From contig CAZSMK010000026.1 in the NCBI GenBank assembly GCA_964608095.1, positions 70,664 through 134,663 of the forward strand: a stretch of DNA of 64,000 nt, given 5' to 3'. This document shows, piece after piece, positions 6,350-56,090 of this stretch. Both the position numbers and the translations under genes were made by a program. Positions within the stretch are counted from its first letter, which is position 1. Each line of letters begins with the position of its first letter. This DNA is from an uncultured Candidatus Sumerlaeota bacterium (GTDB lineage Bacteria; Sumerlaeota; Sumerlaeia; MWCT01; JAGHBZ01). The notes below the pieces were generated by a model, which saw nothing but the letters and a program-made list of their open reading frames with translations, was not told the origin of the DNA and did not search any database.

Positions 6350-8062
6350 TTAATCTGTAGGCACTATCCGCTCGATATCCGATTCAGTAAGGTTGAGTTT
6401 CATACCCTCACTTGTCTCGATTATGACTTGCTGCCTGACACGGGTCGTAACCTTTCCCTGAATCACGTTTCCGTTGGTCAGATAGATGGTATCCCATTTC
6501 ACCGGCGTGGATGTAGGGATAACAGGCGTGAGCACAGGAGAAGGTTCTGCTATAGGTGTAGGCGGTGCAACTTCAACCTCTTCTATGGGCGTGGGTTCTG
6601 GAACAACCTCGGGTACATCGGGTTCAAGGGTCGGTGTGGTCGGCTCCTCGAACACTTCTGTCTCAAAAGGCACCGGCTCAACTGTCGGTGACGTCGGCTC
6701 CTCGAACACTTCTGTCTCAACGGGCAAGGCTTCGAGTGTGGGAGTGGTCGGTTCTTCTTCGACGACAGGCGTAACAACCAGCGTTTCCACAGGCGTGACA
6801 ACGGGCGTTTCCTCGGGTTCAGGTGGAACAAAGGTAGGATAAAGGGGCTCGCGAGGCTCGAACACGGTCTGTTTCAGCATCGACATGATCAAGTCGCGAT
6901 CGTCACGAGTGGGGTTCCTATAATTATCGAGAATTATTGCATCGGGAGACATAGCCTGGGCGCTTCTGATTTGACCGATTATGTCATCCGTAAAATTCAT
7001 CTTTCCTGCAATTGAAAACCACCTCTGAGGTTTCCAATCCAGCGATGTGACGAACTTCAACCACCCGTTGAACTTGTCCGCATCCGCGTAGTCGCGCCAG
7101 TGGTTCTTGACGCACACTATATCGACGATTCCTTCTTCAACCCATCGGGGCCAGTCCTGGAGACTTTCGGTGCACACCGGCGTTGTCTTGAATTCATCCA
7201 CACTGACCGGCGGATCGCCTTCAACATTTACCGCTATAATAATTTTTATCTCAGGGTCAGTCGCATGGGCTGCTTCTGTTATTCCACGAACGAGTTCGGT
7301 TAATCTCGAACGACGCCACTCGAGCCATGATTCGTTGTTCGGGGATGGGTTGCCTTCAAAACCCGTTTCCGCCTGGAATAACTTTACGCTTTCCGGATTA
7401 TACCCCCACGAACTCCCCGGATAACATAAACAGTCAAAGTATATCCCTTTGATGGTATAGCGCGATGTGAGTTCCTTTACCATTCCTTCGAGATAGACCT
7501 TAACACCGGGAAGTGCGGGATCGAGGTATGATTGGCGTGATTCGTCGGTCTTTTCGCCGGCGTAAGTAAGCGACAGCCACTCCCCTCTTTTCACGGCTAT
7601 ACTATTTTCAGCGGGAAAAGGATCTACTTTGCCGTCATGCACCTTGAGCACATCAAGCCATGGATAGACTTCAATAATCGGTTCTGTAGGTGGAGAGGGG
7701 AAATGAGCGAGCGTGAGAAGATCACTCAAGGGATCGATATAGTCGGAAGAAATTTTAGGTGACCGAATCTCAGTCCGGGAGATGTAATAGACCGTTCCAT
7801 TCTCCCTGACCTTTGGAACAATGAAGTGAAACCCAGCCTCGCGGGCGTCTTGAATTAATTGCGTCGAGGAACGATGATTGCTAAAATCCCGTCCTTGTGT
7901 CGTGACGAGAAGACCATACATAATCGATTGCGCATCTTTTGCAGGTGTGACCTCTTCTGACCTCACGGATTCGATGGGCAGAATAAGGCACGCCATAAAA
8001 ACGATAACGTAATACATTAAGGTGCTACCCTTGATTTTCTTCATAATCGCATTTCTCCTCAC
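6350..8062 (-). CDS. Secreted glycoside-hydrolase-like family 10 (GHL10/DUF187) protein. It has a Pro/Thr-rich repeat linker and a small C-terminal beta domain.
   Basis: It has a signal peptide. A central region (YFDCLCYP..WLEWRRSRLTELV) resembles GHL10. Three 18-aa repeats (TEVFEEPT(S/T)PT(V/L)EP..) are encoded by a 54-bp DNA tandem repeat. Confidence 0.5.
   Translation of the reverse strand: MRRNAIMKKIKGSTLMYYVIVFMACLILPIESVRSEEVTPAKDAQSIMYGLLVTTQGRDFSNHRSSTQLIQDAREAGFHFIVPKVRENGTVYYISRTEIRSPKISSDYIDPLSDLLTLAHFPSPPTEPIIEVYPWLDVLKVHDGKVDPFPAENSIAVKRGEWLSLTYAGEKTDESRQSYLDPALPGVKVYLEGMVKELTSRYTIKGIYFDCLCYPGSSWGYNPESVKLFQAETGFEGNPSPNNESWLEWRRSRLTELVRGITEAAHATDPEIKIIIAVNVEGDPPVSVDEFKTTPVCTESLQDWPRWVEEGIVDIVCVKNHWRDYADADKFNGWLKFVTSLDWKPQRWFSIAGKMNFTDDIIGQIRSAQAMSPDAIILDNYRNPTRDDRDLIMSMLKQTVFEPREPLYPTFVPPEPEETPVVTPVETLVVTPVVEEEPTTPTLEALPVETEVFEEPTSPTVEPVPFETEVFEEPTTPTLEPDVPEVVPEPTPIEEVEVAPPTPIAEPSPVLTPVIPTSTPVKWDTIYLTNGNVIQGKVTTRVRQQVIIETSEGMKLNLTESDIERIVPTD
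6590..6800. repeat. 54-bp tandem repeat (about 3.5 copies) that encodes the PT-rich linker of the GHL10-like protein
   Basis: The string cggctcctcgaacacttctgtctcaa recurs at 6641 and 6695, and degenerate copies follow. Confidence 0.7.
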
Positions 8063-8193
8063 GGGTTCGTATATTATTATAATTGATATATGATGTTATA
8101 TTTGATTAAAATTAAACCGATGCTTAACGTCAAGCCAAAAAGCCATTCTTTTTGGGTAAGCTCGCTTAATAATTTCAGGAGAATGCGACAGAA

Positions 8194-8706
8194 ATGAAGG
8201 AGCATATAGCATTATATCCGGGAAGTTTTGACGGCGCGACAAATGGACATCTCGATATAATTCAGCGAGCGGCGGCTCATTTTGACAAGGTCGTGGTCGC
8301 TGTCGCCATAAATCGCGAGAAAGGTCCTTTGTTCACTATCGAAGAGCGATTGGAGATGTTGAGAGAGATGACGGCGGACATCCCCGGGGTGGAGGTAACG
8401 AGTTTTGAAGGACTCACCGTTGAATTTGCAAAAAAAATCGGCGCTGATTTTATTATTCGTGGTCTGCGCGCCGTCTCGGACTTCGAATACGAGCTTCAGC
8501 TCGCCCTGATGAACCGGCAACTTGTTGATACTATCGAAACCATCTTTATGGTGCCGTCGGCTAACTTCTCATTCCTGAGTTCGAGTCTGGTAAAGATTGC
8601 AGCGAGTCTCGGTGGCGATATCACTGAATTCGTGCCACCGGCGGTGGAGCGCCGCCTTCGTGATAAATACGAGGCGCAAGGGGGTTCCTCATGCGACCAA
8701 AGATGA
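8194..8706 (+). CDS. coaD: Phosphopantetheine adenylyltransferase
   Basis: YPGSFDGATNGHLDII is the CoaD nucleotidyltransferase motif. 170 aa. Confidence 0.85.
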   Translation: MKEHIALYPGSFDGATNGHLDIIQRAAAHFDKVVVAVAINREKGPLFTIEERLEMLREMTADIPGVEVTSFEGLTVEFAKKIGADFIIRGLRAVSDFEYELQLALMNRQLVDTIETIFMVPSANFSFLSSSLVKIAASLGGDITEFVPPAVERRLRDKYEAQGGSSCDQR

Positions 8707-9497
8707 GAATCGAGAAAATCAAACAGATGAAGGGCACAACGCGGATCGCCATGATGACCGCCTATGATTTCCCCATGGCGAAAATAGTGGACGAAGCCGG
8801 CATCGATATAATCCTGGTCGGCGATTCACTCGGCATGGTCATGCTGGGCTTCGACAGTACATTATATGTTACCATGGATATGATGACGCATCATTGTGCA
8901 GCGGTCAGCCGTGGCGTTACTAACGCATTGGTGGTAGGCGACATGCCGTTCATGAGTTACAAAATCACACCGGAACAGGCGCTCGAGAATGCCGCACGAC
9001 TTATTCAGGAAGGCGGTGTGGAAGCCATAAAAATCGAAGGCGGCGCGGAGATGGCGCACATCACACATCGCCTCGTTGACGCCGGTATCGCCGTCATGGG
9101 TCATATCGGACTGACTCCCCAGTCCATACATCTACTCAGTGGCTACAAAATCCAGGGTAAGGATCACGAGCAGGTCAAAGGACTTCTCGAAGACGCCAAA
9201 GCGCTCGAAGACGCCGGCGCATTCTGCCTCGTGGTCGAAGCGGTACCCGAAGAAGTCGGTAAGTTCATAACCGAGCATGTCTCCATCCCCACCATCGGTA
9301 TCGGGGCGGGACGATTCTGCGATGGGCAGGTTCTCGTTATCAACGATATCCTCGGTCTTACGTTCGGCAAGATACCCAAATTCGCTAAACAATATCGTAA
9401 TCTCAAGGAAGAGATCGCACACGCGGTTCAAGAGTATCTCAAAGACGTCCGTGACAACACATTCCCATCCGAGGATCATTGTTACCACGTGCATTAA
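8691..9497 (+). CDS. panB: 3-methyl-2-oxobutanoate hydroxymethyltransferase
   Basis: The MTAYDFPMAKIVDEAGIDIILVGDSLGMV stretch is classic PanB. It overlaps coaD by 16 nt. Confidence 0.9.
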   Translation: MRPKMRIEKIKQMKGTTRIAMMTAYDFPMAKIVDEAGIDIILVGDSLGMVMLGFDSTLYVTMDMMTHHCAAVSRGVTNALVVGDMPFMSYKITPEQALENAARLIQEGGVEAIKIEGGAEMAHITHRLVDAGIAVMGHIGLTPQSIHLLSGYKIQGKDHEQVKGLLEDAKALEDAGAFCLVVEAVPEEVGKFITEHVSIPTIGIGAGRFCDGQVLVINDILGLTFGKIPKFAKQYRNLKEEIAHAVQEYLKDVRDNTFPSEDHCYHVH

Positions 9498-9527
9498 GTA
9501 TCCTAACTCAACAAAAGAGAGATATCC

Positions 9528-10124
9528 ATGAAACTTGAACGTGTGTTTTTAGATGTCGCGACACAGCAGGATCGCATGATCCCCGGCGGCGCCTACTACG
9601 TACCAGGTGCGGAAACCATCGTGCCACTGCTCCAAAAGTTAAAAGAGTTCGCTGTAAAAAACGATGCGCTTATTATTTCTCCCGTTGATGTCCACAACCT
9701 CGCCGACTCCGAATTCTGCGACCACCCTTCTCATTGCGTGAAGGGTACCCCGGGTCAGGAAAAAATACCGGAAACTCTCGCAGAGAACCGAACCATAGTC
9801 GGCCTCGTAGCGGAATCCGACTTTAACCCAGCCCCCTACCAGCAGATTATTATCTACAAGACCGACTTTGATCCTTTCAGTAATCCGAACCTCGAGGGAA
9901 TTCTTTCAAAACTGCACGTCGAAGAGTTATGTATTTACGGCATTGCTACGGAAGAAGATATAAGAGCAGCCGCCATCGGCGCCGCAGAACGAGGATATCA
10001 CGTCACTGCCTTTAAAGATGCGATAAAAGCCGTAAGAGAAGACGAGGGAGAGAAAGCCATCTTCGAGATGATGGCCCTGGATATTGAAATGATCTCGGCT
10101 CGTGAACTCCTCGAGATGGAGTAG
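9528..10124 (+). CDS. pncA: Isochorismatase-family hydrolase, nicotinamidase (PncA)-like
   Basis: The metal-site pattern D.H...HP.HCVKGTPG is similar to PncA. 198 aa. Sits with the nadC, coaD and panB cofactor cluster. Confidence 0.55.
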   Translation: MKLERVFLDVATQQDRMIPGGAYYVPGAETIVPLLQKLKEFAVKNDALIISPVDVHNLADSEFCDHPSHCVKGTPGQEKIPETLAENRTIVGLVAESDFNPAPYQQIIIYKTDFDPFSNPNLEGILSKLHVEELCIYGIATEEDIRAAAIGAAERGYHVTAFKDAIKAVREDEGEKAIFEMMALDIEMISARELLEME

Positions 10125-37102: not shown

Positions 37103-37483
37103 TCAAAAAAGTACGGTCATTCCTTGCGTCCTGAACACATAAAGAATAAACATGGTAAAAACAGAAAGGATGACAGAGAAGGTAAGTGCGATTGGAAGGT
37201 TCTCAATAAAAAAATCAGGAATGAAATAGGACGAGATATGAAACATGAGGCCGTTGAACACGATACAGAGTGCGAACAAGACCTCAGGTGTCTGAGGAAA
37301 TCCAAGTAATCCGGCTATTTCAGCGATAAACACATTTACGGGCGCAATCACCAACGCCACCATGATTATAGGAGCGAGCCCGATTATGCGGACACTCTGC
37401 CGGAAAAATAGCCGGATAATATAAATACCGGCGACGGTAATAAACCATCTGGCTATAAGGGCTTCGAAAACATCAGATGACAT
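37103..37483 (-). CDS. Small hypothetical membrane protein (3-4 TM)
   Basis: 126 aa with long hydrophobic stretches. It lies in an otherwise low-coding 2.2-kb gap. Confidence 0.3.
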   Translation of the reverse strand: MSSDVFEALIARWFITVAGIYIIRLFFRQSVRIIGLAPIIMVALVIAPVNVFIAEIAGLLGFPQTPEVLFALCIVFNGLMFHISSYFIPDFFIENLPIALTFSVILSVFTMFILYVFRTQGMTVLF

Positions 37484-45480: not shown

Positions 45481-47229
45481 TCAATAATTCTTCATGGCGG
45501 GAAAAGAACTGCGGGGGGAATGTATGGTCGTATGCGGCTTGGGGCAAAGTTTTGATGCAAGACCGAGCGCACCTTCCAGGGCGTCCAGACCATCGTCATG
45601 TGAAGACTGTGGAAAGTCGCGGCACTGGTCGATAAAGCCGGCACATAGTCGCTCGTTGAAGAGCAACCATTTATTTGCAATGAAAGGTTCGAGGCGAGTT
45701 ATTCGCGCAATTTTATTCTCGCGATGGGTTACCGGCTCGACGTGGAGCCGCCAGTGAATACGCCCCTCTCCCTTGAGACGTTTCCGTTCCTCTTCTATGG
45801 GCAGCATTAGCAAGGATTGGAAACAGTTTGCCTCAATGCCGAAGAGGGAATAGTTCCATCGCTCGTGAAGTTCGAAAATACGGCGCACTTGCTTGGTGGG
45901 CACGGCGCGCTCGAGCCACATATCAACGAGATAATAATACCCGAATCTGTCGACTCCTACGGTAGCGATAGCGGCAAAATCGGATGTTCGTGAGCGCCCC
46001 GAGGCGCCCAGCGCGGAATCCAGAAACCCCACCATTTTAAGCTCGGAAACATCAACCTTGCGCGCTCTCGTGGTTTCTGAAGCACCCTCTCTATCGTTCT
46101 TAACCATGATAACGCCTTTATCGAGTGAGAAGTACACGAAGGAGTCCGGATCGAAAATACGATGTTCTACCGAGCGAGGTTCGTTTTGTTTCTCCTTGAA
46201 AAACGCACGACGTCCACGGGTCGTAAGCTGACACATCAACTCGTAATAGTCCTCCTTCTGTCGCCAGAGCACCTTTACACCTTCGTTCATTGCTGTTTTA
46301 TGCTGGTCATAAAATGCGCGTGCGGTATTCATCCGGTTTGAATCCTTGAGATCGGTATACAAGCGCCGCCACTGCTCCCAGAGCGTGTGATGCGTCGCAA
46401 AGCTTTTGACGGCGACAAATCGCCTTGCGGAAAAATCGGGACGATGAAGCATATTCTCGAGCAGGCTCTCCCGGTGAAGTACCGTCCCGATAACGGATAC
46501 CCTCGTATAGGTATCGCCGAGGTTTTCAATCACCTCATTGAACCAGTTCATGAGTTTCTCACGCTGGTCGGGGCTCTCCACGGCTTCCGAGTCCTCGCCG
46601 TCGTCAATAATAATCAGCGTGGGCCTGACCTCGCGGTAGGTGATACCGCGAAGTTCCGTCCCGGCAGAGAACACATCCACCTGAATATCGTTTACGTTTA
46701 TACTCTTAGTAGTCCAGACCGTGCGCGCCTTGAGCTCCGAACTATACACGGATTTTAAAAGGGCGTTGTTGATGAGCTCCGACTTGATATTTTGGAGCCG
46801 CTGCTTCGCCTGTTTCAATGTCGCGGAAATAATAACGATGTATCGCTCTTGCGCATACAGGATAGAATGAACGGGCAGGATAAGGGTTTTAAGCGTTGAT
46901 TTGGCATAGCCACGCGGCGCGGCGACGACCTCATTGCCACCACGACGGTTAAGGACATCGTCGGTTATCCCCTTCTCATAGCGGTGAATAATATAGCGGT
47001 GCAGGGACGAGAAAGGCAACCGGCAGTAGTGAGGAAAAAAATAACGCGCGAACAGAAATACGTCATTCAGGCATCGAATCCTCAGCGCTTCTCTCACCGT
47101 TGCCGTTCTCTTGCATCTTCTCAAGAACTCGAGAAATTTCTTTCTGGAGCAAGTCGAGATCCGTTCTGTTACCGTTTTGTTCATCGCTGTAGTTAACCTC
47201 GAGGGAAACTGCATTCTGACGCCCTTCAT
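45481..47229 (-). CDS. Phage terminase large-subunit-like protein (ATPase + RNase-H-like nuclease)
   Basis: An N-terminal ARYFFPHY segment. A deviant Walker A VVAAPRGYAKST. A Walker B LIIIDDGED. A C-terminal nuclease-like region GIEANCFQS. The start is probably downstream of the annotated ATG, because the 5' 167 nt overlap the preceding ORF. Confidence 0.55.
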   Translation of the reverse strand: MKGVRMQFPSRLTTAMNKTVTERISTCSRKKFLEFLRRCKRTATVREALRIRCLNDVFLFARYFFPHYCRLPFSSLHRYIIHRYEKGITDDVLNRRGGNEVVAAPRGYAKSTLKTLILPVHSILYAQERYIVIISATLKQAKQRLQNIKSELINNALLKSVYSSELKARTVWTTKSINVNDIQVDVFSAGTELRGITYREVRPTLIIIDDGEDSEAVESPDQREKLMNWFNEVIENLGDTYTRVSVIGTVLHRESLLENMLHRPDFSARRFVAVKSFATHHTLWEQWRRLYTDLKDSNRMNTARAFYDQHKTAMNEGVKVLWRQKEDYYELMCQLTTRGRRAFFKEKQNEPRSVEHRIFDPDSFVYFSLDKGVIMVKNDREGASETTRARKVDVSELKMVGFLDSALGASGRSRTSDFAAIATVGVDRFGYYYLVDMWLERAVPTKQVRRIFELHERWNYSLFGIEANCFQSLLMLPIEEERKRLKGEGRIHWRLHVEPVTHRENKIARITRLEPFIANKWLLFNERLCAGFIDQCRDFPQSSHDDGLDALEGALGLASKLCPKPHTTIHSPRSSFPAMKNY

Positions 47230-47425
47230 GAATTCGTTTCAGGCAGTTAATGGCATAATAAAAATCGCGTATATTTTCGATCTTGTACGTTGTAATGGTT
47301 TTACCGCTTGCTTCGTCGACTACCTGGTGACGATGTTTTTTAAGGTAGGAGACAAGGATACGCTCAGCCTCACGCCATTCGCGCTCCATCTGTCTTGCAA
47401 GCTTTTGAAGTTTGTTCTGTCTCAT
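47063..47425 (-). CDS. Hypothetical small basic protein immediately upstream of the terminase-like gene (possible small-subunit or DNA-binding partner)
   Basis: A 120-aa charged ORF with no recognised motif. It overlaps the terminase-like ORF's 5' end. Confidence 0.3.
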   Translation of the reverse strand: MRQNKLQKLARQMEREWREAERILVSYLKKHRHQVVDEASGKTITTYKIENIRDFYYAINCLKRIHEGRQNAVSLEVNYSDEQNGNRTDLDLLQKEISRVLEKMQENGNGERSAEDSMPE

Positions 47426-47736
47426 TCATTAAGCCCGGTAGGATCGAAAATGTCCCTCATTAAAAAAAAGGACACGCTTATTTCACCATAAAACCCAATC
47501 TGGTACAATTCCCCTCGAAACCCTTGAAGACCCTTACGGCACCGAAATCTCAGGCTCCGATGACGTCAACCTGCTTTCCTGCGATGTAGAAGACCGGACT
47601 TTTGCATTGGGGAATATGTTTTATCGGACCGAGCGTTCCGAGCAGTCTGAGCAGTCCGAGAGGTATAAAAAAGAAGATGGGTCACCCGAAAAAGGTCGTG
47701 AATTCGCCTTTTCGTATGCGCTCGTTTTTTATCGGG

Positions 47737-49797
47737 CTATGGTAAGGGCAGTTCGTGTACCGCTGGATCGAACTCCTGGATTGCATCGCGTAACGCGCGC
47801 GATGCCGCAAGATGAACCTCCTTGGTCATTCCTGCACCTGTGCGCATTTCCTTGAACCGTTCCAGGGCATTATATTTCCTCAACTCGGGGCGTTTCGTAT
47901 AAAGGTCTCTATGGTCTTTCATTGAGGGTATATAGGCTTCCATATCTTTTTCCTTCACGACGCTGACTTCTTCAAACCCGATCCGCAGCCCATACACGGT
48001 ATAGTCGAACATGATGTCTGATTTTCCATTTTGTAGTTCTTTAACGACGATTTCTTGTGTGCTAACCGACGCCACATAGAGCCCATTACAATTCCCCCGA
48101 GGGGTCACGTGAGCGGTCAAGCCGATGTCTGGATTCGTCACCCATTTAAATGTCTCGCCGAGTTGGAGTGTGGCTTCGCCGTTGACTAATCTTCCCACAC
48201 CACGTGTGTAAGTCGCAACCTCGTCGCCTTCAGGTGCGGCATATACAATCACCTTGTCCTCTTCATAGGGATGATTCTGAACAAATGAGCAATCACCGGT
48301 ACCGTATATTTTGTGGGTGCTGTATCCGACGCGTGCATAGCCGCTGGAATCGGTATCGTCAAAGAAGCCCCCCGCCATAAGCCCATCTCCCCGCACCCCG
48401 ATGCCGTCAAGCCCAAGTTTTGCTTCGCAGTTACCGTCACGGTCTTTGAAGTACCCACCCGCTTCGGTTCCTTGCGCCCAGATACCCCATTCCTTTCCAT
48501 CGGCATCTTTATAACCGCAGCGCGCCTCGGCCTTCTCGTCGCTGTGAAGGAAATGACCGCCTACTTTGGCGCCCTTTGCCATAATGCCTTTTTCGCGTCC
48601 TTCGCCGTCTGTATAAGCGACCCAGGCTTCGCCGGTGCCATTCGAGTCTTTGAAATAGCCGCCCGCAGTATCTCCTTGTGCGCTCAGACCATAATGACCC
48701 GTTGCCAGAGATGCTTCCCCGGAAAAAATTTTTGACTTGAAATAGCCGCCCTTGCTTCCCTCGCCGTACACGGCGTAATCTCCCACACCCAGCTTTGCAA
48801 TGGAAAAATTAGGACCGTGAACCTCGAGCTTCGATGTGGGGGCTGGAGTACCGATACCCACATTGCCATCGCCAAGGTATAATGTACCGAATACTCCACC
48901 GTTTCTATCGTACGACTGGACGGTACCCCGGTGGCTTGCGCTGTTATAGGCCAATTCGAGACCTTCGCCGGTTCCTGCGGCAGGGAAGGTATCTTTGCGT
49001 ATACGAACAACGCCGTCCACGTCAAGCCTTGAGCCGGGTGTAGCGGTACCGATACCGACGTTTCCTGTGCCGTCCTGGATTACCATCCGTGTGCCGGGTG
49101 TTCCATTGTAGTCATACCAATACAAGTATTGACTGCCGGAATTCCAGGCGTTGCTCCATTTATTGACACTGTTTTGCTGAATGTCTATGCCCGTAATAGA
49201 GCCTGTGGTGTTGAGTTTGACTTTCGTATTATTCCCTTTAACGGTTAAATTCCCCTCGACCGCGGTCTTGCCGGTAAAATAACCGGCATAGCCGTTGCCT
49301 GTATTGGTGACGGACAATACGGCGTTTGGATGTGCTGCGGCCGCTGATAATTCTACGGGTGCGGTAATTCCCCCGGCTCTTTTCGCCTGGAACGCGAATG
49401 CCGCAGAAGAAATTTTTTGCCGGGGTTCGAAGATTTCACTCGCCTCGAATGTACTGTTATTGTTTGTATCCACTTCAGTTTCTATCCAGAGGTCGGGATA
49501 CGAACTGAAAAAGTCGACTGAAAACGGATTCGTGTCTCCGAGGACAACAGAGTAATACCCTTGAGTAACTGTCACCGCGTATGCCGCGATATGTGTTTCT
49601 TCCCAGAGTGAGGAGCCACCGCTCGCGATGTTATAAACCCGAAAACGCATGTTATAACTTCCGCTCGGTAGGGGTATGCCGTCTCCATCGCGCAAGACTC
49701 CCTGAAAAAAAAGTGTGTCAGATGCAAGAACCAGGCTTGCACACATCATCATCATACCCATGATTACTATACTTCTGAGTGTAATTCTGTACTTCAT
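47737..49797 (-). CDS. Secreted tail-fibre-like beta-repeat protein, paralogue 1
   Basis: It has a signal peptide. An N-terminal module FFQGVLRDGDGIPLPSGSYNMRFRVY. Tail-fibre-type segments GNVGIGTATPGSRLDVDG and GNVGIGTPAPTSKLEVHG. Multiple ~25-aa Gly-rich repeats (AGGYFKD..G.GEA). Confidence 0.5.
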   Translation of the reverse strand: MKYRITLRSIVIMGMMMMCASLVLASDTLFFQGVLRDGDGIPLPSGSYNMRFRVYNIASGGSSLWEETHIAAYAVTVTQGYYSVVLGDTNPFSVDFFSSYPDLWIETEVDTNNNSTFEASEIFEPRQKISSAAFAFQAKRAGGITAPVELSAAAAHPNAVLSVTNTGNGYAGYFTGKTAVEGNLTVKGNNTKVKLNTTGSITGIDIQQNSVNKWSNAWNSGSQYLYWYDYNGTPGTRMVIQDGTGNVGIGTATPGSRLDVDGVVRIRKDTFPAAGTGEGLELAYNSASHRGTVQSYDRNGGVFGTLYLGDGNVGIGTPAPTSKLEVHGPNFSIAKLGVGDYAVYGEGSKGGYFKSKIFSGEASLATGHYGLSAQGDTAGGYFKDSNGTGEAWVAYTDGEGREKGIMAKGAKVGGHFLHSDEKAEARCGYKDADGKEWGIWAQGTEAGGYFKDRDGNCEAKLGLDGIGVRGDGLMAGGFFDDTDSSGYARVGYSTHKIYGTGDCSFVQNHPYEEDKVIVYAAPEGDEVATYTRGVGRLVNGEATLQLGETFKWVTNPDIGLTAHVTPRGNCNGLYVASVSTQEIVVKELQNGKSDIMFDYTVYGLRIGFEEVSVVKEKDMEAYIPSMKDHRDLYTKRPELRKYNALERFKEMRTGAGMTKEVHLAASRALRDAIQEFDPAVHELPLP

Positions 49798-49841
49798 GAC
49801 TTCTATCTCCTTTTGTTCTCTCTATAGTTATGTTTTTCTTT

Positions 49842-51905
49842 TTATAGTTCCGGCGCTTTGTGAACCGCCGGGTCGAATACTTCAATCCTCTCTATCAAGG
49901 CTTGTGATTTTGCCAAATCAAGCGAGCCACTCGTGCCTGTTGTTTTAAGCATGTGTTTGAACCGTTCAAGGGCATTGAAGTCACGTAATCCCGCAGCTTT
50001 AGCATAGATTTCCTGATGTTCCGACATGGAAGGAATACGTGCCTCGAAGTCTTTTTCCTGCACAATACTTGCCTCTTCAAATCCTATCCTGAGACCGTTA
50101 ACGATATAATCAAAAGCGACGCTCGATTTCCCGTCATGCAATTCTCGAACAACCATTTCCTCTGTCGAGAGTGACGCCACATAGAGCCCTTTACAGTCTT
50201 CGCGGGGAGTAAGTTGCGCAGATAAGCCTATGTCTGGATTCGTAACCCATTTAAAGGTGTCGCCGAGTGATACGCGCGCTTTTCCGTTAACAAGACGCCC
50301 CGAGCCGCGGGTATAGGTAGCTACTTCATCGCCTTCCGGGGCTGCATACACAATAATTCTATCATTCTCATAAGGATGGTTCTGTACAAAGGTGCAATCA
50401 CCGACGCCGTAACATTTAGATGTATCGTGGGCGATTCTGACGAAGCTGGACTGATCGGTATCGTCGAATATGCCGCCCGCATAAGAACCAAATGCAGCGA
50501 TACCGTCATAGTGAGATGCAACCTCGACTTTACCGGTACCGTCAGTGGACTGGAAATACCCCCCTGCCTCGATTCCTTCCGCCCATAATCCCCATTCCTT
50601 GTTCTCTAAGTCTTTATACCCGCAGCGAACCTCGGCGTTCTCGTCGCTGTGAAGGAAATGACCGCCGACTTTGGCGCCCTTTGCCATTATACCTTCTTCG
50701 CGTCCTTCGCCGTCTGTATAAGCGACCCAGGCTTCGCCGGTGCCATTCGAGTCTTTGAAATAGCCGCCTGCCGAGTCGCCTTGTGCGCTCAGACCATAAT
50801 GCCCCGTTGCTGCGCTGGCTTCCCCGGAAAAGGTCTTTGTCTTGAAGTATCCGCCCTTGCTGCCCTCGCCATACACGGCGTAATCTCCCACGCCAAGCTT
50901 TGCAATGGTAAAATTTAAACCGTGCACCTCGAGCGGTGCTGTGGGAATGTCCGTACCTATACCGACGTTACCATCACCGAGATACAACGTTCCCCAGGCG
51001 CTTGTTGTTCTGTTCCACACCTGGATATATCCCCTGCTCAAGCTGGCGTTATAGGCAAGCTCAAGACTTCCACCGGTGCCGACAGCGGGCCAGCTCGGTA
51101 CTCCCTTGATACGAGCAGCACCGTCTACGTCCAGTGTTGCGGCGGGTGAGGCTGTTCCGATTCCAACGTACCCCGTACCGTCCTGGATTACCATCCTCGT
51201 CCCCGGCGTTCCGTTGAAATCATACCAGTAGATATATTGACTCCCGGCATTCCATGCATTGCTCCACTTACTAACGCCATTTTGCTGAACATCTATTCCT
51301 GTCAACACATCATTGGTGTTTAATTCAAGTCTGGGTTCGGTGTCTACCACGATAAGGTCCCCCTCGATGACCGTATTATTCAAAAATAAGCCGGCATAGC
51401 CGGTCCAAAGAGTAGTAACTGACAATACTGCGGCTGGGTGGGAGAGCGCACCGCTTATGTGAAGGGGAACGGGAAAGGAGTCGGTATTCTTCGCCATGAA
51501 CGCATAGGCAACGGAATGAAACTCTATCCTTGGAGAAAAATTTTCTTCAGCTTCAAAGGAACCGTTTGTATTCAAGTCAACCGTGACCTCGAGCCAGAGT
51601 TCGGGGTGAAGAACAAAGAACTTCTCACTGAAGGGTGAAATGGCACCCAGCTCAACCGAGAAGTGTCCTTGCACAACGTCGACAGCAGAAGCGGAGGTGT
51701 GATATTCATTCCAGAGTGAACCTCCATCCATCTCAGCATCAAACAACCAGAAGCGCATATTGTATGTTCCCGTTGCAAGGGGAACCCCGTTGCCGTCTTT
51801 GAGCATTCCCTGAATGATGATGGAATCGGAGGCAAGAAGAATATGAGTGATGAGGACAAGGGCAAGGATTACAGAAGATTCAATTATATTAAATTTGTAC
51901 CGCAT
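49842..51905 (-). CDS. Secreted tail-fibre-like beta-repeat protein, paralogue 2
   Basis: 687 aa, colinear with paralogue 1. It has the same signal-peptide, GYVGIGTASPAATLDVDG / GNVGIGTDIPTAPLEVHG and Gly-rich repeat blocks. Confidence 0.5.
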   Translation of the reverse strand: MRYKFNIIESSVILALVLITHILLASDSIIIQGMLKDGNGVPLATGTYNMRFWLFDAEMDGGSLWNEYHTSASAVDVVQGHFSVELGAISPFSEKFFVLHPELWLEVTVDLNTNGSFEAEENFSPRIEFHSVAYAFMAKNTDSFPVPLHISGALSHPAAVLSVTTLWTGYAGLFLNNTVIEGDLIVVDTEPRLELNTNDVLTGIDVQQNGVSKWSNAWNAGSQYIYWYDFNGTPGTRMVIQDGTGYVGIGTASPAATLDVDGAARIKGVPSWPAVGTGGSLELAYNASLSRGYIQVWNRTTSAWGTLYLGDGNVGIGTDIPTAPLEVHGLNFTIAKLGVGDYAVYGEGSKGGYFKTKTFSGEASAATGHYGLSAQGDSAGGYFKDSNGTGEAWVAYTDGEGREEGIMAKGAKVGGHFLHSDENAEVRCGYKDLENKEWGLWAEGIEAGGYFQSTDGTGKVEVASHYDGIAAFGSYAGGIFDDTDQSSFVRIAHDTSKCYGVGDCTFVQNHPYENDRIIVYAAPEGDEVATYTRGSGRLVNGKARVSLGDTFKWVTNPDIGLSAQLTPREDCKGLYVASLSTEEMVVRELHDGKSSVAFDYIVNGLRIGFEEASIVQEKDFEARIPSMSEHQEIYAKAAGLRDFNALERFKHMLKTTGTSGSLDLAKSQALIERIEVFDPAVHKAPEL

Positions 51906-52121
51906 GGTTTATTTTCCTTTCTATTCGAAACTTCAAAAAACCTGCTATTGGAAAACAATGAATTCGAGAAAGTCAAGAAAAAGTTTTGAGGTGGATATTC
52001 CGGATGCGGTTGATTTACGAAATAGGGATATCATAGCAAAACAGGCTTCTGCTTTTGTAAAAGCCTTGTATCCGACCGATCAGTCGGATCAGTCGGTTCA
52101 GTCCTGTAGAAACTTATATCC

Positions 52122-53087: not shown

Positions 53088-53359
53088 GTCAAGATATAAT
53101 CAGTGATATCCCACTACACGGCTGGCAGGTCACGCCCAACTGACGTTCCGCAGCGTCAATTTCTTAGGGCGAAGGCAAGCAGAGAGGTGTGGGTACAGGC
53201 TCATTGCTCTGCCGGAGTTTTTGATACTGTCGTCCAATTTTCGTGTTTCATACTTTTTAAGGTGCCTCACATAAATCTGTGCAATAAAAGAGTAGATAAG
53301 CATGCGCTAACTCCAGTAATCTTCGTAGTGTAGAACACAAAACGAAGGAGGAGAATAGC

Positions 53360-54045
53360 GCCTGCTACAAAAAAGTACGATTCGAAAGACTCGTGGAGTC
53401 AAGCGCCACATGATAAAAAAGATGACCTGGCAAGCCGATGAACTACTGATAGAAGCTGGATAGACATCGGAGAAGATATCTTCCCTGCAGTCGTTGTGGT
53501 AAGCGGGGAATGGTTCGCGATCGATTAAAGCCTCGCAAGTGGCGGCATGCCCCGTTGTCGGGAATACCGGTGACCATACACTACGCCCCGGCTCAAGTAC
53601 GATGTAAGAAGGGTGGCAAGATCGTGGTAGAGGACATTCCTTGGGCTCTGGGAAAATGCCGTCTTTCGAGGGGGTTGATCTGGTTACTAACAAGATGGAC
53701 CACGTTATTAGCCGGGGATGTCGTGGCTCGATTGTTTGGCGTGCATTGGAACACCGTAGCAACGGCGGTAAGACAAGCGGTGAGCTATGGTCTGAACCAT
53801 CGAGAACTGGGAACGGTTCTGTATATAGGGGTCGATGAACTCTCTCGTCGGAAAGGTCATACCTATGTAACGAATATCTATGATTTGTCTCAACGCCGTT
53901 TACTCTGGTCAGGAGAAGGGCGCAGTATCGAAACATTGGAAGCATTTTTTAAGAACATGGCGAGGCCTTACAGGACAAAGTTGTGGGAGTGTGCTGTGAT
54001 ATGTGGAAGCCCTATATTACGATGATACAGAAGCATCCTGCGGCA
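53360..54045 (+). pseudogene. ISL3-family (IS204/IS1001/IS1096/IS1165) transposase N-terminal fragment, frameshifted and 3'-truncated
   Basis: A zinc-finger-like CSRCGK..VRC segment in one frame. Then V.W.TV...V...GL, IGVDELSRRKGHTYVTNIYDL and LWSGEGRS..L..FF in the 53510 frame. CDMWKPYI continues in a third frame. There is no DDE catalytic core and there are no terminal inverted repeats. Confidence 0.6.
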
Positions 54046-55185: not shown

Positions 55186-55215
55186 ACAAAAATACTCCTG
55201 AAGATTCCTCAGGAG
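55186..55215 (-). terminator. Rho-independent terminator for the HhH-protein gene
   Basis: On the minus strand, ctcctgaggaatcttcaggag (7-bp stem) followed by tattttt. It overlaps the stop codon. Confidence 0.5.
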
Positions 55216-56090
55216 TGGGTGGCATAATGTTTTTTGCACTCGGCTTCGCGGCCGCGTACTACTCGTTTTCCTTTTAGTTCTCCGTGTTCAGCGGTTACTA
55301 CTGTACATTGGTCTTCCTCGTTGTCCTTTTTAAAATAAACGACGACCCAATCGTGAGTTTTTCCGAGTTCATGCGCCTTTGCCGTATTGGAATATAGAAC
55401 CGTGAAGCTCCAACCATTCCGCTTGGTCTTCATGAGGGGAAGCCATTTTTCGCCTTCAGGATTGAATCGTCGCGGCGCGATTTTCTTCAGTGTATCCTTC
55501 TCCGCTTTTGTACGGTACTCTTCGTCAATATCGAGAAGAAGATTGATCGAGGGAACATCAGTTTCTTTTCGCTTTTGGCGTCGACGTGCCCTGCGCGATG
55601 ACGAGCGGCTCAACATCCCTGCAAGAGCATTGATCACCCCCTCGACACGTTTTTCACCGACCCCTTCGAGCGACTCCAGCCGCCCGTCATGTGCCGCTTG
55701 CTCGAGCTCTTCCAACGACTCGATACCAAGCTCTTCATGAATACGACGAGCGAGTTCCTCTCCTATACCGGGCACCCGCGTAAAAACTCGTTCAGGAGAT
55801 ATTTCGCTCTCGAGCTTGTCAACGAGCCCGAGCCGGCCCGTTTGCACGAATTCCTGGATCAAGCCGGCAAGTTTCAAACCAATACCCGCTATATCGGTCA
55901 ATCCTTCCGCTCCCTTCTCCTTTACCAATGCCGCTATCGACTCATCTGTGTTTCTCACGGATCGAGCTGCTTTTCTATAACTTTGTATGCGGAAAGTATT
56001 TTTGTCCAGGATCTCGAGCAAATCTGCGATGTGATCGAAGGTATCGGCGATCCTGTCGTTATCTATGTTCCCGGTTACCATGAAGTTCAC
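55209..56090 (-). CDS. Helix-hairpin-helix DNA-binding protein with a PolX-type N-terminal (8-kDa/lyase + fingers) module. It has an uncharacterised basic C-terminal domain and no palm/thumb.
   Basis: NDRIADTFDHIADLLEI..FRIQSYRKAARSV...IAGIG..LAGLIQEF..TGRL mirrors the Pol beta/PolX N-terminus. A second HhH is VPGIGEELARRIHEELGIESLEEL. 293 aa. Confidence 0.5.
   Translation of the reverse strand: MNFMVTGNIDNDRIADTFDHIADLLEILDKNTFRIQSYRKAARSVRNTDESIAALVKEKGAEGLTDIAGIGLKLAGLIQEFVQTGRLGLVDKLESEISPERVFTRVPGIGEELARRIHEELGIESLEELEQAAHDGRLESLEGVGEKRVEGVINALAGMLSRSSSRRARRRQKRKETDVPSINLLLDIDEEYRTKAEKDTLKKIAPRRFNPEGEKWLPLMKTKRNGWSFTVLYSNTAKAHELGKTHDWVVVYFKKDNEEDQCTVVTAEHGELKGKRVVRGREAECKKHYATHS

Follow-up and report, generated by a model that had tools for sequence, protein, structure and literature searches.

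What is a gene for the large subunit of a phage terminase (TerL) doing on a bacterial chromosome, among housekeeping genes and with no phage head gene beside it? The question is raised by a stretch of 64,000 nucleotides (64 kb; hereafter the window) from an uncultured Candidatus Sumerlaeota bacterium (assembly GCA_964608095.1, contig CAZSMK010000026.1, positions 70,664 to 134,663), in which a TerL-like open reading frame (ORF), a small ORF and two genes for fibre-like proteins (fibre 1 and fibre 2) follow one another on the minus strand. A preliminary description of this DNA had proposed an operon that couples a packaging or DNA-translocating ATPase to surface adhesins, or else the last remnant of a prophage, and had set a gene transfer agent (GTA) aside. 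Comparison with related genomes leads to a different answer, and a multi-locus GTA-like system is now the best fit. We consider it probable that the gene belongs to a phylum-wide system for head formation and DNA packaging, domesticated from a Mu-like phage, dispersed over the chromosome, co-regulated and similar to a GTA; the small ORF and TerL would form a transcription unit of their own and act as its DNA-packaging module.

The terminase and its lineage

The 582-aa product of the TerL-like ORF matches the large terminase family of PHROG (phrog_38, E = 1.8e-79) and, over residues 411-555, the Pfam domain Terminase_6C (27.7 bits against a cut-off of 22.6 bits). The most similar phage proteins (about 30% identity) are the TerLs of the Mu-like transposable phages of the JBD24/JBD26 type from Pseudomonas and of Mushu from Faecalibacterium. 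A TerL profile had no match among PDB sequences, where the relationship is visible only by structure comparison. An AlphaFold2 model built on 33 homologues (predicted local distance difference test, pLDDT, of 89.7) was compared with PDB using Foldseek; the top 26 matches are all large terminases, led by PhiV-1 (E = 3.8e-18) and followed by T4 gp17, D6E, HK97, Sf6 and T7. The ATPase domain of the model resembles its counterparts in the TerLs of T4, P74-26 and D6E, and the nuclease domain resembles those of gp17, human cytomegalovirus (HCMV) and Sf6 as well as RuvC. In an alignment of 33 TerL homologues (A2, down to 36% identity), the nuclease acidic residues D389, E451, D530, D531 and D534 are invariant, as are the key residues of the Walker motifs (Table 1). 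Profile matches and predicted fold identify the 582-aa product as a true large terminase whose catalytic motifs are intact. It is of the Mu-like type, with a predicted N-terminal packaging ATPase of the additional strand, catalytic E (ASCE) class and a predicted C-terminal RNase H-like nuclease. The preliminary description, which had called the protein TerL-like and its Walker A/B and nuclease-region motifs preserved, is borne out.

Because the small ORF overlaps the longest TerL frame by 167 nt, the real start of TerL is probably M16 (47184) or V45 (47097); the deposited version (538 aa) begins at V45. Some TerLs of the clade described below reach 640-760 aa and have insertions of 60-105 aa at profile position ~350 or ~460, too short for typical inteins. 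A fusion of the small ORF to TerL in the longer homologues was considered and rejected, the extra length consisting of N-terminal extensions and these internal insertions.

A protein search returned about 120 close TerL homologues (35-69% identity). Those that carry taxon names are almost all from Candidatus Sumerlaeota (BRC1), many of them on contigs of 0.15-3.3 Mb, and on five independent long contigs, including the complete 3.29-Mb CP030759.1, TerL lies among unrelated, genome-specific housekeeping genes. The genomic context was surveyed in 80 loci from one genome per GTDB species and in 80 viral loci from IMG/VR, with clustering of the flanking ORFs. In about 40 Sumerlaeota-type loci, phage gene families are absent within 10 kb on either side of TerL. 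In nearly all viral contigs and in relatives from other phyla, a portal gene follows TerL at a distance of 0-30 nt and is accompanied by 5-15 conserved head and tail families. Two Sumerlaeota-type loci (L011 and L041) are exceptions, with a portal gene 5-7 kb from TerL and other genes intervening. The plain prophage that the preliminary description had kept in view, with capsid, portal or tail genes just outside the arrangement in related contigs, is not what the roughly 40 loci of the clade contain. Nor does TerL stand in the window as it does in a virus genome, beside a small terminase and a portal gene, there being no portal within the 64 kb.

The lone TerLs form one clade (bootstrap 91/100) with no TerL from a phage context inside it, and the best viral TerL in IMG/VR is only 39% identical. 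Within the clade, pairwise ratios of nonsynonymous to synonymous substitution rates (dN/dS) range from 0.12 to 0.28 (for example 0.158 at a dS of 0.45). In a syntenic pair of loci (L016 and L018, 10-kb region), TerL is 84-87% identical and the host neighbours are 75-95% identical; TerL thus diverges at the pace of its neighbours and evolves as a resident host gene at a fixed position. These comparisons indicate that the lone TerL clade is under purifying selection and vertically inherited. The earlier view of a functional and domesticated rather than decayed gene is upheld by the invariant catalytic residues, the dN/dS values, the synteny and the monophyly, while the idea of a last prophage remnant fails because TerL is conserved phylum-wide.

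The small ORF is the only constant neighbour of TerL in this clade; a fibre gene never is. Iterative searches found small-ORF homologues in 32 loci, all of the lone-TerL clade, and in each of them the gene immediately precedes TerL on the same strand, overlapping its start. The protein is helical, with a core of ~110 aa, a conserved LKRIQEGR helix, an EISR helix and an acidic C-terminal tail (alignments A1 and A5). It had been called basic, which its computed pI of 6.85 does not bear out. No match was obtained in Pfam, PHROG or NCBIfam, and its profile hit only designed helical proteins among PDB sequences, which are artefacts of composition. A tblastn search of 50,697 phage records returned nothing, and hhalign against the ORF families found at the small terminase (TerS) position of the phage relatives gave a probability of ~1%. 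A recognisable small terminase or regulator was rejected on these grounds; the position of the gene suggests a small-terminase role.

Some further terminase loci were observed. The metagenome-assembled genome LC101 has two TerL units (L031:9635-11608 and L053:7115-8562) that are only 50% identical and are both preceded by the AAGGGT-repeat operator described below (34.4 and 24.5 bits); either paralogy or a mixed bin could account for the pair. In the closest relative of the window locus (L010, TerL 69% identical), a DNA methyltransferase-like gene lies downstream of TerL (8020-9534), and a partial ORF at the contig edge (L010:1-492) has a weak match (E = 5.6e-5) to the spike family c7 of the head modules. 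In Omnitrophota (L056-L066, e.g. L056:8034-11500), a triad of a ParB-N/N6_N4 DNA methylase (425 aa), a 224-aa ORF and TerL is conserved in 10 loci, with downstream genes that differ between loci. This triad may be another detached terminase unit, or the loci may just be diverse phages.

Head genes and a predicted common promoter

The portal protein encoded near TerL in L011 is of the Mu gp29 type (phrog_113, E = 2e-95; PF06074). Its homologues are numerous (45-74% identical), and the named ones are from Sumerlaeota. On contig L011, the TerL unit and the portal unit are ~5 kb apart with other genes between them, and at L091 and L092 the portal gene is alone in a chromosomal housekeeping context. 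The 6.0-Mb chromosome OW818685.1 carries a block of portal, protease, scaffold and major capsid protein (MCP) genes at 0.15 Mb (phrog_976, phrog_673 and phrog_1005); its TerL gene is at 5.64 Mb, which on the circular map puts the two ~500 kb apart. The complete head set (TerL, portal, protease/scaffold and MCP) is present in this one genome, and part of it on contig L011.

A metagenome scan with a portal profile yielded 65 loci, and the four-gene block from portal to MCP was found in 27-35 of them. Some blocks are extended by a gp36 adaptor (PF07030, phrog_195), a 202-aa protein, a protein of 840-920 aa (with a weak "tail protein" match, seen in an 839-aa member) and a spike/fibre-like protein of 570-760 aa. 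TerL is never upstream of the portal gene at the Sumerlaeota-type loci, whereas the distant phage-like loci do have it there. Tube, tape measure, holin and endolysin genes were not identified, and IMG/VR contained only one short (4-kb) head-block fragment with a closely related portal. The preliminary description had reported neither capsid nor portal genes. This is correct for the locus but not for the system, since relatives encode portal, protease, scaffold, MCP and gp36 elsewhere behind the same type of promoter.

The spike/fibre-like gene (family c7, 570-760 aa) ends the Sumerlaeota head module at L179, L190, L201 and L209 (e.g. L190:17678-19954). A Sec-type N-terminal signal peptide is present on its product in L179, L190/L209 and L201 (e.g. 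MKPKIVIVFFCLLFPALIFA/IK, the slash marking the cleavage site). Members of the family also directly follow a lone portal gene (L091:11535-14186 and L199:11784-13292), where the ORFs as called have no evident signal peptide.

The predicted promoters of the portal and head-block units contain two or three direct repeats (consensus TAAGGGT) in a 10-bp phase, which run into GGAATTGAC (with a -35-like TTGAC), and a GTGTATTAA-like -10 region lies ~17-19 nt beyond the -35. The same pattern of repeats and GGAATTGAC had been noticed upstream of the small-ORF/TerL units before it was seen at the portal genes. In the window, three AAGGG-type direct repeats in a 10-bp phase run up to a -35-like TTGTAC, with a GTGAAATAA -10-like element ~17-19 nt further downstream; 79 nt separate the end of the site from the ATG of the small ORF. 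Promoters that depend on an activator classically have helically phased direct repeats immediately next to the -35.

A loose regular expression for this operator was too noisy (36 matches against 7.7 expected), and we used a position weight matrix (PWM) instead, 35 nt long and trained on 11 portal-upstream sites from other loci only. The window has a single outstanding match, at 27.5 bits, with a runner-up of 10.5 bits; the maximum over 200 shuffles of the window was 22.5 bits, none reaching 27.5. Across all fetched loci (~3.1-3.2 Mb), the real matches of at least 17.5 bits lie upstream of portal genes or of small-ORF/TerL units of the Sumerlaeota clade, with the sole exception of an 18.0-bit match at the contig edge of L024, to which no downstream gene could be assigned. 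Ten shuffles of the whole 3.2 Mb gave 1-3 matches of at least 17.5 bits and none of at least 25 bits. Nine further independent TerL units have a site (17.6-34.4 bits), and on L011 both units carry one (25.3 and 21.9 bits). At the sequence level, the dispersed loci are predicted to be coordinately regulated through this common repeat-plus-GGAATTGAC promoter. A weaker operator-like site (L182:3266-3300, 14.1 bits) lies inside a head block, between portal and protease, a hint that blocks may contain internal promoters, which could make further fragmentation easier.

A proposed dispersed packaging system and its alternatives

In the system that we propose, the common activator-type promoter, and not linkage, would tie the dispersed pieces together. 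A DNA-binding activator would switch on all units at once, procapsids would assemble on the portal, and TerL, probably with the small protein as small terminase, would cut DNA and pump it into the procapsids by a headful mechanism. The outcome would be GTA-like particles, for which transfer of their own genes would be impossible because the loci are dispersed over more than 500 kb. More tentatively, the phylum Sumerlaeota may possess a GTA-like DNA-packaging organelle whose genes are scattered, in some genomes down to single genes (TerL with its novel small partner, and the portal gene), and united as a regulon only by a direct-repeat operator at the -35; this would be an independent origin of a GTA with an unprecedented architecture and with a regulatory code that can be read from the sequence. 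Vertical inheritance of phage-derived genes under purifying selection, as expected of a GTA, is seen in the monophyly, dN/dS, synteny and widespread portal family. For tail, delivery and lysis functions, we found only the gp36 adaptor, the weak "tail protein" match (839 aa) and the spike/fibre-like gene in some modules.

The GTA of Rhodobacter capsulatus (RcGTA) also has a multi-locus genome (PMC5026251). Both systems have chromosomal, phage-derived head and packaging genes at several loci, with vertical inheritance, purifying selection, no integrase or replication genes and presumably common regulation. The one described here differs in its Sumerlaeota host, in its Mu-like rather than HK97-like ancestry, in its fragmentation to single genes in some genomes and in the direct-repeat operator common to its units. 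TerL is separated from the portal gene, whereas the two stand together in the 14-kb head-tail cluster of RcGTA. Moreover, no tube and tape measure set was seen in the Sumerlaeota system, which is known from its genes.

Mu-like phages (Mu, the D3112/JBD24-type phages of Pseudomonas and Mushu of Faecalibacterium) have a late head module in the order TerS, TerL, portal (gp29), F, protease (I), scaffold (Z), MCP (T) and gp36. They provide the closest relatives of TerL (~30%) and share the portal (PF06074), protease, scaffold, MCP and gp36 (PF07030) families and their order. Unlike these phages, the Sumerlaeota set has no transposase, early genes or contiguous genome, its TerL gene is detached from the portal gene, housekeeping genes form the flanks, and the protein at the TerS position is unrelated to that of the phage relatives. 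Activator-dependent late promoters are a hallmark of Mu. Capsid-forming phage-inducible chromosomal islands (cf-PICI) likewise encode TerL, TerS, portal, protease and capsid without tails, but theirs form a cluster on a mobile island that has an integrase and att sites, whereas the Sumerlaeota genes are dispersed, syntenic and immobile. To our knowledge, only a handful of independent GTA lineages have been recognised, none of them in Sumerlaeota or other poorly cultured phyla. A full-text literature search found no paper that links Sumerlaeota to terminases, phages or gene transfer agents.

Several points weigh against a dispersed GTA-like system. Particle formation and DNA transfer are proposed from genes alone, and the shared promoter is a prediction; we infer co-expression, capsid assembly, packaging, release and transfer, as well as the presence of head genes in the genome of the window, where the 64 kb examined contain no portal or capsid gene. 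Within the window it is TerL whose relatives point to Sumerlaeota; the housekeeping proteins, ~30% identical to proteins of the fetched loci, were uninformative on taxonomy. TerL and head genes co-occur in the same genome on one chromosome and one contig, a third case being two contigs of the same metagenome, and no complete set of tail, lysis or regulator genes was identified. The TerL tree was built by neighbour-joining (NJ) only, and no similarity of the small ORF to any small terminase was detected. A Sec signal peptide on c7 is odd for a particle assembled in the cytoplasm.

TerL might instead have been exapted, together with the small protein, for a capsid-free job such as that of a DNA translocase/nuclease in defence, repair or chromosome processing, the head genes of the relatives being an unrelated or separately domesticated set. 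In favour, TerL is physically alone in about 40 genomes, no portal was found in the window, and the portal gene is also alone in some genomes, so that a complete head set is not proven everywhere; we nevertheless regard this reading as unlikely. The promoter architecture is common to TerL and to the portal/head units and to no other identified gene, the TerL and portal families run parallel in their phylum-wide distribution and share Mu-like ancestry, PADLOC gave no match, and TerL has kept the full nuclease and ATPase architecture of packaging enzymes. Slightly less likely again is a helper-dependent or hijacking element, in which TerL, the small protein and the head genes would parasitise or interfere with infecting Mu-like phages. 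Phage satellites (PICI, cf-PICI) are well known to encode packaging and capsid genes while lacking a complete virion set; a full tail set was not found here either, and the small ORF could redirect packaging specificity. Such an element is hard to reconcile with the lack of an integrase, att repeats and replication genes, with genes that are not clustered in an island, and with stable, syntenic positions and host-like evolutionary rates. No matching helper is known, because the nearest viral TerL is only 39% identical.

The operon of the preliminary description, with a domesticated DNA-translocating ATPase working together with two secreted fibre adhesins, appears very improbable. The four genes are indeed co-oriented and adjacent in the window, the interval from fibre 1 to the small ORF yielded no strong intrinsic terminator, and the head module of relatives ends in a secreted spike/fibre whose GNVGIGT motif is shared with the window fibres. 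This adjacency is nevertheless unique: a fibre gene adjoins TerL at none of the ~40 other clade loci, including that of the closest relative (L010). The fibre family, moreover, lies outside Sumerlaeota and occurs without TerL, a separate and specific promoter is predicted in the 311-nt gap, and the window fibres have no profile-level homology with the module spike. We give even less credence to a decaying Mu-like prophage remnant with no current function, for which the Mu-like ancestry of TerL and the insertion sequence (IS) fragment nearby might speak. Its ORF and catalytic residues are intact clade-wide, dN/dS is 0.12-0.28, the clade is monophyletic and syntenic, and the promoter is conserved. 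Both the fibre-coupled operon and the decaying remnant are contradicted by the comparative sequence data.

Should the proposed dispersed system be real, viral head genes would be able to remain functional when dispersed one by one, a common operator taking the place of linkage. In any complete Sumerlaeota genome, the whole regulon could then be listed with the PWM, down to tail, lysis and regulator genes not yet recognised, and antiviral sensors of TerL or portal would need to tolerate the chromosomal copies. Caution in annotation is also advisable, as prophage and virus predictors label such chromosomal genes as phage; the one 4-kb head-block fragment sits in IMG/VR.

Fibre genes and surroundings of the cluster

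The ORF listing gives all four minus-strand ORFs, co-oriented as previously described, at the coordinates in Table 1. Their close spacing holds for the fibre genes, which are separated by 44 nt, but not for fibre 1 and the small ORF, between which lies the gap of 311 nt with the predicted promoter. The apparent four-gene operon is most likely two units that are neighbours by chance, because no other TerL locus adjoins fibre genes and the region upstream of fibre 2 (51906-52121) has no AAGGGT-repeat operator. The fibre genes are probably transcribed separately from the TerL unit, although transcripts may read through the gap, which has no strong terminator. The suggested coupling of TerL to the fibres, to be looked for as co-occurrence in related genomes, found no parallel: no fibre gene stands beside any other TerL locus, tandem fibre genes occur elsewhere without phage genes, and the TerL unit has its own predicted promoter.

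Table 1. Positions of the cluster genes, TerL motifs and predicted operator in the window, and TerL units with operator sites at other loci
Feature	Position	Strand	Details
Fibre 2	49842-51905	-	687 aa (ORF listing)
Fibre 1	47737-49797	-	686 aa (ORF listing)
Small ORF	47063-47425	-	120 aa (ORF listing)
TerL-like ORF, longest frame	45481-47229	-	582 aa (ORF listing)
TerL Walker A	46894-46923	-	AAPRGYAKST (aa 103-112); A89, P90, R91, G92, A94 and K95 invariant in A2
TerL Walker B/catalytic carboxylate	46591-46617	-	LIIIDDGED (aa 205-213); D194, D195 and E197 invariant in A2
TerL nuclease core	45574-46029	-	GFLDSALG (aa 401-408), FGIEANCFQ (aa 463-471), SHDDGLDALE (aa 543-552)
Predicted operator/promoter of the small-ORF/TerL unit	47504-47538	-	CGTAAGGGTCTTCAAGGGTTTCGAGGGGAATTGTA; portal-trained PWM, 27.5 bits
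TerL-unit PWM sites, names as listed (ten)			L031, L012, L029, L001, L010, L011, L053, L005, L021, L039

The two fibre proteins are paralogues, as had been proposed, with 61% identity overall and a repeat spacing of 2105 nt. Residues 351-420 (48540-48750 in fibre 1), which contain GGYF beta-hairpin repeats, are 93% identical and the N- and C-termini 37-51%, which suggests gene conversion in the middle or diversified ends. On direct reading, both N-termini are of the Sec type that had been reported (MKYRITLRSIVIMGMMMMCASLVLA/SD and MRYKFNIIESSVILALVLITHILLA/SD), with n-, h- and c-regions and cleavage after Ala (LVLA/SD and ILLA/SD). The argument that a signal peptide excludes a link to phage is weakened, because c7 of the head module also has a Sec-type N-terminus. 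Homology between the fibres and the c7 spike was nevertheless rejected, with only the motif GNVGIGT..P...L.V shared (blastp 1e-4 over 33 aa; hhalign ~1%).

Evidence for the fibre-like nature of both proteins is modest. They have weak matches to tail-fibre families of PHROG on the GNVGIGT..P...L.V motif, and fibre 1 alone matches the NCBIfam model Bdello_MAT_N (6.8e-5), at 22.7 bits below the 60-bit cut-off. Among PDB sequences, the best matches of the fibres are the mosaic adhesive trimer (MAT) fibres of Bdellovibrio 8OND (6e-5), 8OML (0.017) and 8OJN, with E-values up to 0.03. The AlphaFold2 monomer of fibre 1 (pLDDT 64) has a confident N-terminal beta-sandwich and a shaft with pLDDT below 50, which is probably trimeric; GGYF-type beta-hairpin repeats and a conserved C-terminal domain complete the layout. 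Foldseek gave weak local matches of this model to R-pyocin fibres and phage tailspikes.

As adhesins of the cell surface, MAT fibres are secreted and trimeric; their N-domain is conserved and their tips can be exchanged, and relatives have been noted in other bacteria (PMC10769870). Like them, the window fibres are predicted to be secreted, resemble phage tail fibres and are encoded by chromosomal paralogues. They are shorter (686 aa against ~1000 aa), fall below the Bdello_MAT_N cut-off and have a C-terminal domain that is conserved within the family and is not a known MAT tip. Homologues are patchily distributed in Zixibacteria, Phycisphaerae, Acidobacteriota, KSB1 and others and are not spread across Sumerlaeota. 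The window fibres are most likely MAT-like secreted surface fibres, independently acquired and unrelated to the TerL system, and as such would extend the idea of MAT-like secreted fibres beyond predatory bacteria. In the Zixibacteria chromosome CP070839.1 (L240, 7867-13983), three tandem fibre paralogues (635, 653 and 595 aa) lie in a housekeeping context with no phage gene nearby. This array adjoins a Por_Secre_tail/FlgD_ig protein, consistent with a surface-protein role.

A look-up with the fibre assigned the window to contig MLSed_10000009 of JGI metagenome 3300001533. The cluster is flanked by ordinary chromosome. Using Pfam on about 20 large ORFs (31.8-63.7 kb), we identified rpsB-tsf-pyrH-frr-uppS-cdsA and a YfhO-type membrane protein on one side and, on the other, DUF202, uracil-DNA glycosylase, an ISL3 transposase fragment, a PolX-like fragment, PEBP, RNase HII, PFOR and PpiD. 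None of these ORFs is a capsid, portal, tail, lysis or integrase gene by Pfam, and custom hidden Markov models (HMMs) for portal, protease, scaffold, MCP, gp36 and tail-like proteins had no match in any ORF of the window, in agreement with the earlier statement that no phage structural, lysis or integrase gene lies within 10 kb. Beside the cluster, there is no tRNA, integrase, att-like or flanking direct repeat and no marked shift in GC content or composition. An island insertion was rejected on this account, as was a contiguous Mu-like prophage, given the housekeeping flanks and the lack of att-like repeats and tRNA. The preliminary description had likewise excluded a prophage, and also a tailocin. 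The latter exclusion agrees with the absence of detectable sheath, tube and baseplate genes in the window, where the phage-derived gene is a head-packaging enzyme. A defence system was rejected too, none of the four proteins having a PADLOC match, and the intergenic regions had no match in Rfam.

Three neighbouring genes deserve mention. A 126-aa membrane protein of the family PF04020 (Phage_holin_4_2; 37103-37483, minus strand) is encoded between ahcY and rpsB, at a distance of 8 kb from TerL; no other gene near the cluster has "phage" in its name, and this one is probably a common bacterial member of that family. The ISL3 transposase fragment (53510-54025, plus strand, 171 aa) retains only the N-terminal part of DDE_Tnp_ISL3 (region 53307-54025), and the PolX-like ORF (55209-56090, minus strand, 293 aa) has helix-hairpin-helix domains only. 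These two fragments are signs of local rearrangement beside the cluster.

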